The notes under the pieces: model-generated | What the model was told of the DNA's origin: nothing | What the model saw: only the letters and a program-made list of their open reading frames with translations | Databases searched by the model: none | Program-made: the position numbers and the translations under genes | Origin: Lophium mytilinum | Taxonomy: Eukaryota | Reading direction: 5' to 3' | NCBI GenBank assembly: GCA_010093605.1 | Contig: MU004185.1 | Span: 2,191,334 to 2,255,333 of the forward strand | Length of the DNA: 64,000 nucleotides | Shown here: in pieces, positions 2,870-31,998 of the stretch | How the letters are laid out: every line of letters begins with the position of its first letter | Position numbering within the stretch: the stretch's first letter is position 1

Positions 2870-4232
2870 ATGGCTGCATTGGGATCGTACTTCCTGGACC
2901 TAGTCTATTCCTTCACGAACTGCATGGTGTGCTTCCCTGGCTCGCCGCAGCTGAAGATCAACACCCGGAGCTTCAAGATCTTGCGACTACTAGGAGAGGT
3001 ATGTCTCCTTACGGGCAGGGAATGCGGAATCCAGCAGCTGACATTTGTGCGAACATAGGGAGGATTCTCGTATGTCTACCTAGTGCAGGACACATCAAAC
3101 CAACAGTTATGGGCCCTGAAGAAGATACGATGTCCTTTCGGCCAGGAATCTGTCTCGCTCGCCTTGAAAGAGGTCGAGGCATACAGCCTCTTCTCTCCAC
3201 ACCCGAACATCATTCACAGCATAGACTATAGCGTAGCCTCGGACAAGTCTGATCCCGGTGCCAAAACGGTCTACATAGTCCTACCATATTACCGACGAGG
3301 GAATCTCCAGGACATGATCAACGCGAATCTGGTCAATCACACCAAGTTCCCGGAGAAGAGGCTCATGGTGCTATTCCTCGGGGTGTGCAGGGCCTTGAAG
3401 GCGATGCACCAGTACAAGGTGCAGGGCGGACCAGGCGGGGCCGCAAGCCAAAATAAAGCGAAAAGAGTCAGACAAGAAGCTGCGAGAGCTGATGCCGATG
3501 CTGCCGAGGAAGTCGAGATGAGTGCATCTAGGAGGAGAGGGGCGAACGGGAACCAAGATCAGGAGGAAATGGAGCAAGAGCCCCTTATGGAAGACGAGGT
3601 CACAATCAGTCAGGAGGGTATAGCCCCTGGAGGTGAACGAGCATATGCACATCGGGACATCAAACCTGGTAAGCTTGGGTGAAAAGCGATATATAAACAT
3701 ACAAGGCCAAGCTAACCCCGCTAAAGGAAACATCATGATCGCAGATGATGGCAAGACACCGATTCTTATGGATCTCGGCTCATTAGCACCTTCTCCAACA
3801 CCTATCACGTCACGCTCTCTGGCTCTTGCGGTGCAGGATACCGCCGGTGAGCACAGCACAATGCCATATCGCGCCCCTGAGCTCTTCGATGTGAAGACTG
3901 GAAGCACTATTGACACCAAAGTCGACATCTGGTCACTCGGCTGCACTCTATACGCTTGCTTAGTCGGAAAGTCGCCATTCGAAGCCCGCTCCGAGGAGAC
4001 TGGTGGCAGTCTGAGTATGTGTGTCTTGGGTGGCGACTGGAGATTCCCTGATGAGGTTCCCCACAGGGGTAAGCAACCAGCCCCAATTGAAGAAGCCATA
4101 AGCGACAACGTCAAAGAGGTTGTCAGGAAGTGTCTACAAGTCGAGGCGAGTGAACGACCTGACGTTGATGAATTGATCAGGATAGTGGAGGACGTCATCG
4201 TGACTCTACCTGGGGACGGGACGGAGGAGTAA
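2870..4232 (+). CDS. ENV7: Ser/Thr protein kinase, Env7/STK16 (NAK family)-like
   Basis: Exons 2870-2998, 3059-3668, 3727-4232 with GT-AG introns. LGEGGFSYVYL glycine loop (after splicing), ALKKI, HRDIKPGNIM, DLGS, TMPYRAPELF, DIWSLGCTLY. Cys-containing N-terminus (NCMVCFP). Confidence 0.88.
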
Positions 4233-4613
4233 TGTGCTTGCATTCCCCTTGTCATTTGGCGTTCTGGGGCAATCCACTTAAAAGTGATGGATTGTGTAAG
4301 AGTAGGAACATTGGAAATGGTTCAATGGGGTTCCCGTTGGAGTGATTCTTTATTGCAGCGATCTTTTCGTGGCATTTGCTGTCACGAGCCTCGACTCTTA
4401 GCATGTACAAACTGTTCAGTGGCGGTTTCAGATGAATTCATCCATATGGCCTTCAAATATTGTGCTGCCTTCCTTCCGCTCGTGGCACTCGTGTTACGTA
4501 CGGTATATGGTGACATCCGTCACGAGGCATCCAAGAAGACAGCCATAATCTACAGCAATAGAAGAACTGCGGCTATGCACCTGCTCTAACAGTGAGTAGA
4601 CTACAAGAGATCA

Positions 4614-4626
4614 AAATACAAAAAAA
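4614..4626 (-). terminator. RNA polymerase III oligo-T terminator of the tRNA-Ile gene
   Basis: TTTTTTTGTATTTT on the minus strand, starting 3 nt after the discriminator base. Confidence 0.7.
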
Positions 4627-4628
4627 GA

Positions 4629-4788
4629 TACTCCGTGTGGGGGTCGAACCCACGACATCCGCATTACCAGACGGTCATATAACTCTGACGAATCATATAA
4701 GAACGGCGCGCTACCACCTATGTATCGAATCAGCAACTATTTCATTCGAAGATCGACGTCCGGCGTTGACTTACTGCGCCAACGGAGT
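4629..4788 (-). tRNA. tRNA-Ile (anticodon UAU) with two intervening sequences: a canonical 31-nt tRNA intron (4665-4695) and a 57-nt spliceosomal-type insertion in the D-loop (4718-4774)
   Basis: Joining 4788-4775, 4717-4696 and 4664-4629 gives ACTCCGTTGGCGCAGTGGTAGCGCGCCGTTCTTATAATGCGGATGTCGTGGGTTCGACCCCCACACGGAGTA. Acceptor stem ACTCCGT/ACGGAGT, D stem GCGC/GCGC, anticodon TAT at 4699-4697, T arm GTGGG-TTCGACC-CCCAC, discriminator A, followed by a T-run. Confidence 0.9.
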
Positions 4789-5468
4789 TGTTCCGGTCGT
4801 TTTCTCGATCTGAGAATGAAAGGATTTTGGGCCAAGGTGAAATTTTGTTGTATATGACCCATAGATTGGAGCGGGGTCCGAACCGCTTTTACTGTGGCCC
4901 CTAATCGCAGCCGCCTACTTTAAATTCACTTCAAGATTACGTAACTTTTAATAGGTAACTAGCTCTCAAATTCCACAGCACTATGTCATGATAGTCTCAA
5001 ATACTACGGCTGGAAACGCTGTATTGTGTAGCACGTCAGAAGTGGAAGTAATTGAGGAATGCTATTCTTAATTTAGACGGCTTTGAGCGGGGGCACGGAT
5101 GTCACCTTACGACTTCGGAAGGCGGCTGGGGTAGCTCAACATCACCATCAACTCCAATTCTCCGAGCGACCTCGGACGTTATCAAATTGATCTCCCTCGG
5201 ATTTAGGGCCTGTAGTAAGAGTCCCGAAGCCTACTCGCATCTTTTGTTCAGGCAATCGGGCAATCGAAACCTCCCGCGTCAGCTCGTTGCCTTCCCAATA
5301 CACCGCCTGGGCATCACCGTATTGCCTCACTATCCGCCTCACGGACTCTGAGGCGTGCGCCCTGTAGTTGAGTCATCGAAGTAAAGCTCTTGCCTTGAGA
5401 TAAAGCTCAAGCTGCCTTGACGCTTCTCCTCTCGTCAACTATTGCCCATCATCCTCCTCTAGACCGCT

Positions 5469-7847
5469 ATGACCATTCGAGCAACCAAGTTCACGCCAAA
5501 GGTGCTCCTCAGCGCCCCCCGGCGATCTGCAGGCGTACCAAATGCAGACGGTTCCAGGATTCTGTACTCGGTATCCACGTATTCATTCGCAGACCACTCG
5601 AGGAAGACGGAGATTCGAGTGCTCGATGTGTTGACTCAGACTTCCGGGCTCATCACAGATGCCGCCGGTGCCAGTGAGCCGAATTGGCTCGGCGATGATC
5701 ATGTTCTTGTCTTGGTGCCAGGTGATGCGGGAACGACAAAGCTGGTAGCTGGGAATGTTGATAACTTTGAAAACAGGTGCGTTGCTTCTCATATCACTCC
5801 GAACTGAGGCATCGAAGTTGTTGCTTGGGGAAAGACCCATTGCCAATAATTTAGCGTGTGCGCTATAGTAACTTGGCTGAAGAAGTCAACGAAGACTGAT
5901 CTGTCAACAGCAGCTATGAGGCCGGCGTCATCGATTCAGGTGCTAGCAACCTCAAACTCGTGTCCATAGGAGAGAACGAATTTGCTGTTGCAGTGACTGC
6001 TGAGGCTAATCCTAAGGGCGAGCTCTACAATCCATCAACTGCACCAAAGCCGCTATCATCAGGTAAGCTCTATAAGTCTCTCTTCGTGAGACACTGGGAC
6101 CAGTATGTTACGAAGAACCGCAACTCCATCTGGCTGGGCACGATCTCGAAACCATCATCGGAAACCAACAGCCATGCAAGATATAAGCTGTCACCGTTGG
6201 TCAATGCCCTGGCCGGTACAGGCTTGGAATCCCCTATCCCAACATTTGGCGGCAGTGATCATTTCGACATAAGCCCGAAAGCATTGATTTTCGCCGCCAA
6301 AGACCCTGATCTAAATCCAGCGACACATACCAAAGTCAATGTCTACTTGATCGAAATTCAAGACTTCTCTAGGCCGTCAGTATCGAAGCCGAAGAAAGTG
6401 GAAACATTCGGGTTTGAAGGGGCCAGCACGTCAACAGTCCTTTCTCCCGATGGAAAACAAGCCGCTTTCCTCTCAATGTGCCAGGATGGCTACGAAGCTG
6501 ATAAGAACCATCTCTTCATTGTTCCTGACGTCAGGCGGCCGTCTTGGGTAGTTCATGCGTATGCCTCAGCAGACGGTAAAGGGGGCTGGCCTCTCAGTCC
6601 TGGAGGTATCATATGGAGCGCGGACAGCAAGACGTTGTACTTGTTGGCAGAGGATAAAGGACGAGTTTGTTTGTTTCAGACCTCCGCCCAGGGCAAGGAG
6701 CTTCCCGAACTGATTATGACTGGTGGCACTATTAGTGGTAAATATGTATCTTTCTTGGGATTCGGAAATGACGTTAACACTAGCTAGATATTCGACCATT
6801 GAAAACGGGAGATGTGTTTGTATCATCAAACAGTCTGATCGACAACAGCACATACTATCTCACCAACAGCTCCCATAATCACACTGTGTTATCTTCCAAC
6901 TCCCGCGACGGTGCCATGTTTGGTCTCTCACACAAACAAATTAGGGAGGTTTCCTGGCCTGGAGCAGCAGACGGCACCCTAGTGCACGCATGGGTAGTAG
7001 TACCGTCTACCTTCAACGTAAAGGAGAAATACCCACTGGCGTACCTAATCCATGGCGGGCCACAAGGAGCCTGGCTAGATGGTTGGAGCACCCGATGGAA
7101 CCCGGCCGTGTTTGCTGAGCAAGGCTACGTCGTCGTCTGCCCCAATCCCACGGGAAGCAGTGGATACGGACAAGACTTCACAGACGCCATCCAGGACCAA
7201 TGGGGAGGGCTACCCTATCAAGACATTGCCAAAGGCTTTGACTGGATTGAGCAGAACATGGACTTTGTAGACACGAGCCGCGCTGTGGCTCTTGGTGCAT
7301 CCTATGGTAAGAACCGAAGAGCTCTTTCATGTGGCTAGTGGCTGACCGTATTGCAGGAGGATATATGATGAACTGGGTCCAAGGCCAAGACCTAGGACGG
7401 AAGTTCAAAGCCCTCGTCACTCATGATGGAGTCTTCAGTATGGCCGGGCAGATGGGAAGCGAAGAGCTGTACTTCCCGTTCCACGAGTTCAAGGGCAGCC
7501 TCTGGGCCAACCGAGAGGGTTGGCTCAAATGGGACCCCTCGAGATTCACCGAGAATTGGGCTACCCCACACCTCATCATTCACAGCGAGCTGGACTACCG
7601 TCTTACCATTAGCGAAGGGCTGGCTGCATTCAATACCCTTCAGGTCAAGGGGATTGAGAGTCAGTTTCTTACCTTCCCAGACGAGAATCACTGGGTTTTG
7701 AAGCCAGAGAACTCTTTGCTCTGGCACACTGTTGTGCTTGATTGGATCAATGAGCATGTTGGGCTGCCATCGTACTCGAGTACTAGTAAAAGCGAGGATA
7801 TCAAAAGTGACGCTTTAGTTGAAGGAGTTCAGGGCCTGAGTCTGTAG
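5469..7847 (+). CDS. Dipeptidyl-peptidase V-like S9 (prolyl oligopeptidase family) peptidase
   Basis: Exons about 5469-5776, 5911-6737, 6788-7306, 7357-7847. Motifs LFVRHWD, IHGGPQGAW, WSTRWNP, GASYGG (nucleophile Ser; motif split by an intron), DYRL, FPDENHW. No obvious signal peptide. Confidence 0.9.
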
Positions 7848-31301: not shown

Positions 31302-31443
31302 GTCTCCTAATGGCTTAGTGGAGCTGACACCCAGGGTACAACATACAGTATCTCCGTCGCCGCTCCTATACTAAGCCAAGCGGATTCGAAATCGACCCGT
31401 CTTGAGAATTAAATGGTGCTGGGTTCGAATCCTGGCGGGGATG
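31302..31443 (+). pseudogene. Degenerate tRNA-like element (pseudogene or tRNA-derived element)
   Basis: A-box TGGCTTAGTGG (31311-31321), B-box GGTTCGAATCC (31422-31432) in a CTGGG/CCTGG stem, 3' CGGGGATG, T-run at about 31459. No clean D or anticodon arm could be folded. Confidence 0.4.
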
Positions 31444-31998
31444 GAAAAGCGGAACATGTTTTTTTTGTCTTTTTGTCTTTGCCCGTCCGTACTACCTCAT
31501 TCACCCACTCATGGACGCTCAATGGCCTCAATCTTTTCCTTATTAAGTAGTAATTGAGCCTTTCCCGTTGCGTGTGCGCGCAGTAATCGCTGAACGAGCA
31601 GCTCGGACGCGCAGATGCCCAGCTACCCAACTTCGCGAGTGAATAATCTTGCCATCGAGGTTTCCAACCTTTGTTAACCTTTTCCTCACTCACATCGTAA
31701 CTCATCAAGGAGCAACGCAGTTAACATTAGATTTGAAGCTCAAGCAGTGCAACTTCTAGCTAACCTCAATTCAGACTCTGCTTCCCCGACTATATGAGGT
31801 GCTCGCACGACGACTACTAGCAACTCTCGACAAAGGCAATACATTCACCAGCCTTAGCTCCCAAATTTTATGACGTATCGCTAGGCTTGACCTCATCCTT
31901 AGCAATTTAGTCTTAACTTGTCACAACCCAGTTAACTGTCATTACCAGCCACTGACAACACTGAGCTGGTTTTCACCCGAAGCGACGACTCGAGCGCT

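Follow-up and report, generated by a model that had tools for sequence, protein, structure and literature searches.

Candidate spliceosomal introns in tRNA-Ile(UAU) genes: a D-loop case in Lophium mytilinum and related genes in metagenome contigs

The 64,000-nucleotide (nt) stretch of Lophium mytilinum DNA analysed here (the window, from contig MU004185.1) carries at 4788-4629, on its minus strand, a 160-nt transfer RNA (tRNA) gene, tRNA-Ile(UAU), which is interrupted by two introns. The gene lies inside a gap of about 460 nt flanked by two plus-strand genes, where the frames of a kinase end by 4589 and those of a peptidase begin beyond ~5050. Exon 1 (4788-4775, 14 nt) provides tRNA positions 1-14, which comprise the 5' strand of the acceptor stem, U8, G9, the 5' strand of the D stem (GCGC) and A14. 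It is followed by intron 1 (4774-4718, 57 nt), an insertion of the messenger RNA (mRNA) type located in the D loop between A14 and G15. The 5' splice site of this intron, GTAAGT (4774-4769), matches GTRNGT from the first base, the branch site GCTGAT (4734-4729) matches CTRAY with its A at 4730, which lies 12 nt before the intron end, and the 3' splice site TAG (4720-4718) matches YAG at the last base. Exon 2 (4717-4696, 22 nt) holds positions 15-37 with the remainder of the D arm, the 5' strand of the anticodon stem, the anticodon TAT (4699-4697) and A37. Intron 2 (4695-4665, 31 nt) sits at the canonical 37/38 site and is of the endonuclease type by its position. Exon 3 (4664-4629, 36 nt), which ends in the discriminator A at 4629, holds positions 38-72 and the B box, GGTTCGACCCC, which is intact. 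Seven consecutive T residues (4626-4620), 3 nt past the discriminator, likely form the RNA polymerase III terminator, and the 5' leader (4789-4806) runs into the word TCGAGAAA (4808-4801); all of these features are on the minus strand. Slicing the sequence at these coordinates confirmed the anatomy given in the first-pass annotation, which had described the 57-nt insertion between A14 and G15 with its GTAAGT, GCTGAT and TAG signals, and the separate 31-nt intron at 37/38.

When the three exons were joined in a script, ARAGORN recognized the product as a 72-nt tRNA-Ile(tat). The cloverleaf of this exon join has an acceptor stem of 7 base pairs, a GCGC/GCGC D stem, a D loop of sequence AGTGGTA and a T stem of 5 base pairs, with all of these pairs intact and a single U31-U39 mismatch in the anticodon stem. 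The excision of intron 1 therefore restores the D arm exactly. The A box is split by intron 1 and still matches at 9 of the 11 positions of its consensus, because the initial GT of the intron occupies the places of G15 and U16. By our own arithmetic, a random 57-mer would begin with GTAAGT, end with YAG and carry CTRAY 8-25 nt before its end with a probability of about 5e-7.

Two mRNA introns of the window could be validated by continuity of the reading frame and of the Pfam match, and this comparison is limited to these two. The first (7307-7356, 50 nt) runs from GTAAGA to CAG and has the A of its branch GCTGAC 11 nt before the end, while the second (3669-3726, 58 nt) runs from GTAAGC to AAG, the A of its branch GCTAAC lying at the same distance of 11 nt. 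Intron 1 falls at 57 nt beside these lengths of 50 and 58 nt and its signals fit the same pattern, so that the resemblance to the mRNA introns of the window, which had been asserted at first sight, holds against both validated examples. A loose intron grammar is not enriched in the window, where 33 donors were counted against a shuffle mean of 27.4. The case is accordingly built on the exact position of the intron and its conservation, and not on motif counts.

A search of public runs returned 19 that contain part of 4400-5000, and four of these (X1, X2, X3 and X5) were compared; the other 15 runs (shares of 0.03-0.14) fall outside the comparison and are not used as evidence. The complete interrupted gene was found in three of the four. 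A 2041-nt contig of X2 (organism B, probably DNA, since its contig set is as large as a genome) covers 4613-4801 with 4 substitutions and 2 indels, a 257-nt contig of the soil RNA library X3 covers 4621-4788 with 4 substitutions and 1 indel, and a 165-nt contig of the freshwater RNA library X5 covers 4637-4806 with 5 substitutions and 3 indels. Outside the covered ranges the flanks are unlike those of the window, which indicates that the three contigs come from different organisms or different loci. The 13 substitutions and 6 indels are all confined to 4720-4752, within intron 1, and not one difference was observed in the exons, intron 2, GTAAGT, GCTGAT or the final AG. The 3' site of X2 is changed from TAG to CAG with YAG retained, and by our count the indels bring the distance from the branch A to the intron end to 10-11 nt in the three contigs. 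The leader at 4789-4806 has the same letters in X5, and 13 nt of it are the same in X2.

According to our own arithmetic, the six events of X2 would all fall within 57 of the 189 aligned bases with p of about 7.5e-4, and the 19 events would all avoid the 14 signal bases with p of about 0.005, a value to be read with the caution that the three sources are not mutually independent. On these alignments the pattern is that of a gene under selection with an intron that requires just its signals. Since the changes are confined to intron 1 and spare its splice signals, the locus does not appear to be a decayed copy. The first-pass annotation had likewise judged that the gene did not look decayed, and had proposed a comparison with relatives for conserved exons and splice signals around a diverged intron interior; this is what X2, X3 and X5 display, with the flanks varying as well. 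An exact 19-nt word across the exon 1/intron 1 boundary gave no match in prokaryote and viral contig collections, which is little informative for a eukaryotic gene.

Related genes were sought by scanning metagenome contigs with a degenerate exon 2 pattern, which yielded 97 loci. A structure-guided resolver then scored the acceptor, anticodon and T stems together with the T loop (maximum score 22) and allowed either a contiguous 3' part or a single GT..AG excision of 35-130 nt. Fifty-three of the 97 loci were resolved, 12 as intron-less bacterial-type genes and 41 as genes of the eukaryote type (34 unique sequences), whose canonical intron measures 20-58 nt. An extra GT..AG excision was required in 23 of the 41 eukaryote-type loci (19 of the 34 unique sequences), and 14 of these 23 interrupted genes were recovered independently by ARAGORN with one solution each. 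The extra introns were observed at positions 42/43 (L030, L057, L075 and L093), 54/55 (L013 and L092), 58/59 (L005, L084, L088, L095 and L097), 59/60 (the L014 group), 60/61 (L006, L022 and L076) and 68/69 (L009), and a D-loop intron in none of the 41 genes. On these reconstructions, extra mRNA-type introns are more widespread than the single case of the first-pass annotation and occupy six further positions. Judged by the splice signals, the tRNA and its canonical intron, the contigs are probably fungal.

The 19 unique extra introns are 49-57 nt long and begin with GTAAGT, GTACGT, GTATGT, GTGAGT, GTAGGT, GTAGGC, GTGCGT or GTACGC. In 16 of the 19 there is a CTRAY branch, mostly ACTAAC, whose A lies 9-12 nt before the end; the remaining three have TTGAC at 16 nt. 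YAG ends 18 of the 19. None of them contains a T run longer than four, and a T run of at least five lies within 30 nt of the gene end in 15 of the 19 unique interrupted genes. When the ten unique T-loop introns at 58/59 and 59/60 were aligned, the only invariant columns were GT..G, ACTAA and AG, and the mature tRNA is identical in nine of these ten genes. The 54/55 introns of L013 and L092 are alignable with each other, and a compensatory T-stem change separates the two genes. L003 and L025, which lack an extra intron, have the same mature tRNA as L009, which carries a 57-nt GT-AG intron four bases before the tRNA 3' end; this set suggests that an intron was recently gained or lost, and that the 3' exon is very short.

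The nearest relatives of the window gene in the set are L079 (91% identical from exon 2 through exon 3) and L086 (89%), both of which have an uninterrupted D loop, a near-identical canonical intron and compensatory T-stem changes relative to the window. The word TCGAGAAA is also present upstream of both. Compensatory changes in the T stem, between the window and these two genes as well as between L013 and L092, point to working tRNAs. Most eukaryote-type relatives score 20-21 of 22, and T occurs at both 31 and 39 in the sequences inspected. The U31-U39 mismatch, which had been singled out as the one oddity of the gene, is thus common to most eukaryote-type relatives and is a trait of the lineage and not damage.

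The leaders of the T-loop-intron genes, otherwise diverged, share the palindromic word AGTCCAGGGAC 10-20 nt upstream of the tRNA 5' end (L014, L020, L029, L033, L034, L041, L056, L063, L095 and L097), with the variant AGTCCAAGGAC in its place in L033 and L063. The first five letters of AGTCCAGGGAC are the tRNA's own first five, and the word could be a promoter or a processing element. The 44 of the 97 loci that were not resolved were left out of the counts. Among these 44 are L004 and L048, which are truncated eukaryote-type genes, L048 breaking off right after a T-loop GTAAGT. Three more of them, L050, L068 and L072, are identical GC-rich loci that keep a tRNA-Ile(UAU)-like sequence only as its 5' half, through the anticodon arm and with no T arm, and they look like a tRNA fragment left at a prokaryotic integration site. 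Most of the rest were judged to be chance matches in coding-like DNA.

We consider it probable, from the sequence comparisons above, that 4788-4629 is a functional nuclear tRNA-Ile(UAU) gene from a filamentous ascomycete, with a U2-type GT-AG spliceosomal intron in its D loop and an endonuclease-type intron at 37/38. With less assurance, we lean towards the broader reading in which ascomycetes hold an undescribed class of spliceosomal tRNA introns, maintained by selection, which have repeatedly been inserted into the gene for the low-copy tRNA-Ile(UAU), at no fewer than seven positions that range from the D loop to a point four bases short of the 3' end. A tRNA essential for decoding would thus need the spliceosome and then the endonuclease on one polymerase III transcript. 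Intron 1 alone folds weakly (-7.1 kcal/mol), and no second copy of it was found in the 64-kb window or in the 97 metagenome loci. A self-splicing group I or group II intron was considered and rejected, as Rfam gave no match at E<=1 on 4550-4870 and the intron is 57 nt long. This length is far too short for a self-splicing intron.

The transcript would be processed in four steps. RNA polymerase III would transcribe the 160-nt unit to the T7 run, a polymerase proposed because the B box is intact, a T7 run lies just past the gene and 9 of 11 A-box positions are retained. The nuclear spliceosome would then excise the 57-nt intron, using GTAAGT, TAG and the branch A at 4730, and so restore the D loop. 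The pre-tRNA, then foldable, would be end-processed and exported, and finally the SEN endonuclease and the Trl1 ligase would excise the 31-nt intron. The polymerase, the order of the steps and the splicing itself are what we infer here. The spliceosome is placed before the endonuclease for two reasons. The first is that the eukaryotic tRNA endonuclease takes its measure from a folded tRNA body. The second is that in budding yeast this enzyme sits on the mitochondrial surface, so that the splicing of canonical introns is cytoplasmic (PMC4090602). The supply of the AUA-decoding tRNA would in this way be tied to spliceosome activity.

Several observations weigh against a spliceosomal intron in a working tRNA gene. 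The first 22 nt of intron 1 (4774-4753) are invariant in X2, X3 and X5, which is beyond what the splice signals need. No spliced joint was found in the contigs of the four runs, although such contigs cannot show rare or small RNAs, and the RNA-library contigs of X3 and X5 keep both introns, which could reflect DNA carry-over or a precursor. The X3 contig extends 91 nt beyond its T6 run, an odd feature in a transcript of polymerase III. The X1 contig (5943 nt), which is identical to the window over 4400-4717, stops exactly at the intron 1/exon 2 boundary with no loose letters at its end, and run X1 holds no sampled word from 4718-5000. In addition, a 5' exon of just 14 nt with a short uncapped leader is unusual as a substrate of the spliceosome. 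The GT and the AG of the metagenome introns were imposed by the search, although the extended signals were not, and the fact that long T runs are missing from 20 short introns has no statistical significance (p of about 0.17, our own estimate).

Pairing between intron 1 and intron 2 was tried as the cause of the 22-nt invariance and rejected, since its energy of -18.6 kcal/mol was matched by 51 of 500 shuffles. The X3 contig begins exactly at tRNA position 1. The end of the X1 contig at 4717/4718 may be a fork in the assembly graph that leads to a different upstream sequence, such as a copy lacking the intron, or alternatively the 3' end of an antisense kinase mRNA, should the run be RNA.

The alternative that survives best, although we regard it as unlikely, keeps the same gene and the same spliceosomal intron and differs in the polymerase: RNA polymerase II would make the precursor, from its own promoter or by read-through, and RNase P and RNase Z would free the tRNA after splicing. 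Such an origin would account for the repeated arrival of mRNA-type introns in this gene, and in the textbook view the recruitment of the spliceosome is normally coupled to polymerase II. The T7 run right after the window gene and the T runs after 15 of the 19 relatives speak for polymerase III instead, even though the X3 contig reads past its own T6 run. The internal promoter can be argued both ways, as the B box is split by the 54/55 introns of L013 and L092, whereas that of the window gene is intact and its A box nearly so. On the upstream side, the conserved AGTCCAGGGAC of the T-loop-intron group would suit polymerase II, but no minus-strand protein gene or obvious promoter was found in the window upstream of the tRNA gene, which lies between two plus-strand genes. 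A tRNA made by polymerase II is on record (tRNA-Sec of Trypanosoma brucei; PMC2943599); equally, U6 of fission yeast is a polymerase III gene able to carry such an intron (PMC5855946).

We find it more doubtful still that the locus is a disabled copy, a pseudogene hit by an intron-like insertion while an uninterrupted gene elsewhere supplies the tRNA. The missing spliced joint and the abrupt end of the X1 contig would fit such a copy, as would the uninterrupted D loops of L079 and L086, the closest metagenome relatives. A pseudogene is hard to reconcile with three sources that have unalignable flanks and not a single exon or intron 2 difference, all 19 changes being in intron 1 with the signals kept, nor would it be expected to retain both terminator and B box. 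Introns of this kind are found at six further sites, where the signals are conserved and the mature tRNAs identical, and the chance of the full signal set at the exact ends is the very small value calculated above.

There is very little to recommend the proposal that intron 1 is a non-canonical tRNA intron cut by the tRNA splicing endonuclease, or removed by another route without the spliceosome. Its precedent is the tRNA-Ile(UAU) of Cyanidioschyzon merolae, the same tRNA with introns in similar places (12/13, 37/38 and 53/54; PMC9602550). The bulge-helix-bulge (BHB) motif which this enzyme would need is absent by a crude test, the best central helix of intron 1 having 2 of 4 pairs over nine registers and none of the 19 unique extra introns reaching 4 of 4. 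A conserved grammar of GT, branch and AG would moreover serve no purpose in such an intron, and the fungal enzyme is established to measure from the mature body to the anticodon loop. Hardly credible at all is an intron that belongs to a polymerase II transcript overlapping the site, whether mRNA or long non-coding RNA, with the tRNA-like location accidental, since, for all that the kinase gene ends ~40 nt away on the opposite strand and the X1 contig may be the kinase mRNA with its 3' end at 4717, the GT-AG reading is on the tRNA's own minus strand, the plus-strand reading of CT..AC means that intron 1 is not an intron of the flanking plus-strand genes, no minus-strand coding gene crosses the site, and the exon boundaries restore the tRNA exactly, as they do at six other positions in unrelated flanks.

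No published description of a spliceosomal intron in a tRNA gene was found by full-text literature search, a search whose coverage leaves out most subscription journals; within that literature, the statement of the first-pass annotation that no such case was known stands. tRNA splicing is stated to be independent of the spliceosome (PMC13149111). The stem 'spliceosom' is wholly absent (0 occurrences) from a review of tRNA introns (PMC4090602), a review of tRNA gene diversity (PMC4033280), the tRNAscan-SE 2.0 paper (PMC8450103) and a paper on missing tRNA genes (PMC8007984). The non-coding RNAs listed with spliceosomal introns in PMC5855946 are U6, U2, U5, U1 and ribosomal DNA (rDNA), tRNA not being in the list; the cases cited are U6 of S. 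pombe (Tani and Ohshima 1989, 1991), U2, U1 and U5 of Rhodotorula hasegawae, and ascomycete rDNA. U6 is a small nuclear RNA (snRNA) made by polymerase III, and its intron in fission yeast gives a precedent, an mRNA-type intron carried by a gene of that polymerase. The fungal snRNA and rDNA introns resemble the present ones in having GT-AG ends and a branch site within a structured non-coding RNA, in being scattered and often lineage-specific, and in occupying several positions in one small gene. They differ in two respects. The snRNA introns are explained by closeness to the spliceosome's active site, with reverse splicing (PMC5855946), an explanation inapplicable to tRNA, and the window transcript also carries an endonuclease-type intron, hence two machineries would be needed.

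The C. merolae tRNA-Ile(UAU) also has extra D-arm and T-arm introns besides the canonical one, and these are removed before the anticodon intron (PMC9602550), an order that we infer for the window gene too. In both C. merolae, for each of the three introns, and archaea, in contrast, the endonuclease cuts at a BHB motif and GT, branch and AG are lacking (PMC9602550, PMC4033280), whereas intron 1 lacks the BHB and has conserved spliceosomal signals. Intron 2 is like the canonical fungal 37/38 introns that are processed by SEN and Trl1 (PMC4090602), and is conserved in L079 and L086. Unlike the canonical introns, intron 1 has mRNA splice signals and is located at 14/15, beyond the established reach of the endonuclease ruler. 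Introner-like elements of Dothideomycetes offer a route by which new spliceosomal introns arise in filamentous fungi, but they occur in many copies, exceed regular introns in length and fold strongly (PMC4457414, PMC3609843). Intron 1 is in contrast 57 nt long, weakly folded and single-copy within the window and the 97 loci.

ARAGORN in default mode reported no gene across the 64-kb window, and Rfam gave no match at its gathering threshold, nor at E<=1 over 4550-4870. When introns were allowed, ARAGORN miscalled the locus as tRNA-His(atg) with a 76-nt intron. The prediction that standard tRNA finders would miss or mis-call the gene was thus borne out for these two tools. In tRNAscan-SE, non-canonical introns are sought in the archaeal mode only (PMC8450103).

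The wider window encodes a HET domain protein, a protein kinase, an S9 peptidase and a DUF726 protein, and in the Atlas the clusters closest to the DUF726 protein are eukaryotic, with Ascomycota most common. A second polymerase III-like unit was noticed on the plus strand at 31311-31466. It has a perfect A-box word, TGGCTTAGTGG, at 31311, a B box, GGTTCGAATCC, at 31422 within a good T arm, an acceptor-like pairing between ATCTCCG (31350) and CGGGGAT (31436), and a T8 run at 31459. No tRNA was recovered from this unit by single-intron GT..AG excision (108 tried), by any single excision of 8-149 nt (13,845 tried) or by paired GY..AG excisions (767 tried), and its Rfam match was at chance level only. 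Possible identities are a tRNA with still more interruptions, an element derived from a tRNA, or some other small RNA.

If true, the reading favoured here, a spliceosomal intron in a working tRNA-Ile(UAU) gene, would define a new class of tRNA introns and the first RNA known to require both nuclear splicing systems, against the textbook view that tRNA splicing proceeds without the spliceosome. The determinants of where new spliceosomal introns settle in non-coding RNAs are described as unclear (PMC5855946). Seven positions in one 72-nt gene, together with the L003/L009 pair with and without the intron, would provide a compact natural system for intron gain, loss and sliding. Since the standard tRNA finders are blind to such genes, tRNA-Ile(UAU) may be wrongly reported as absent from fungal genome annotations. 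In the fungi that carry these introns, the decoding of a rare codon would be linked to the activity of the spliceosome.

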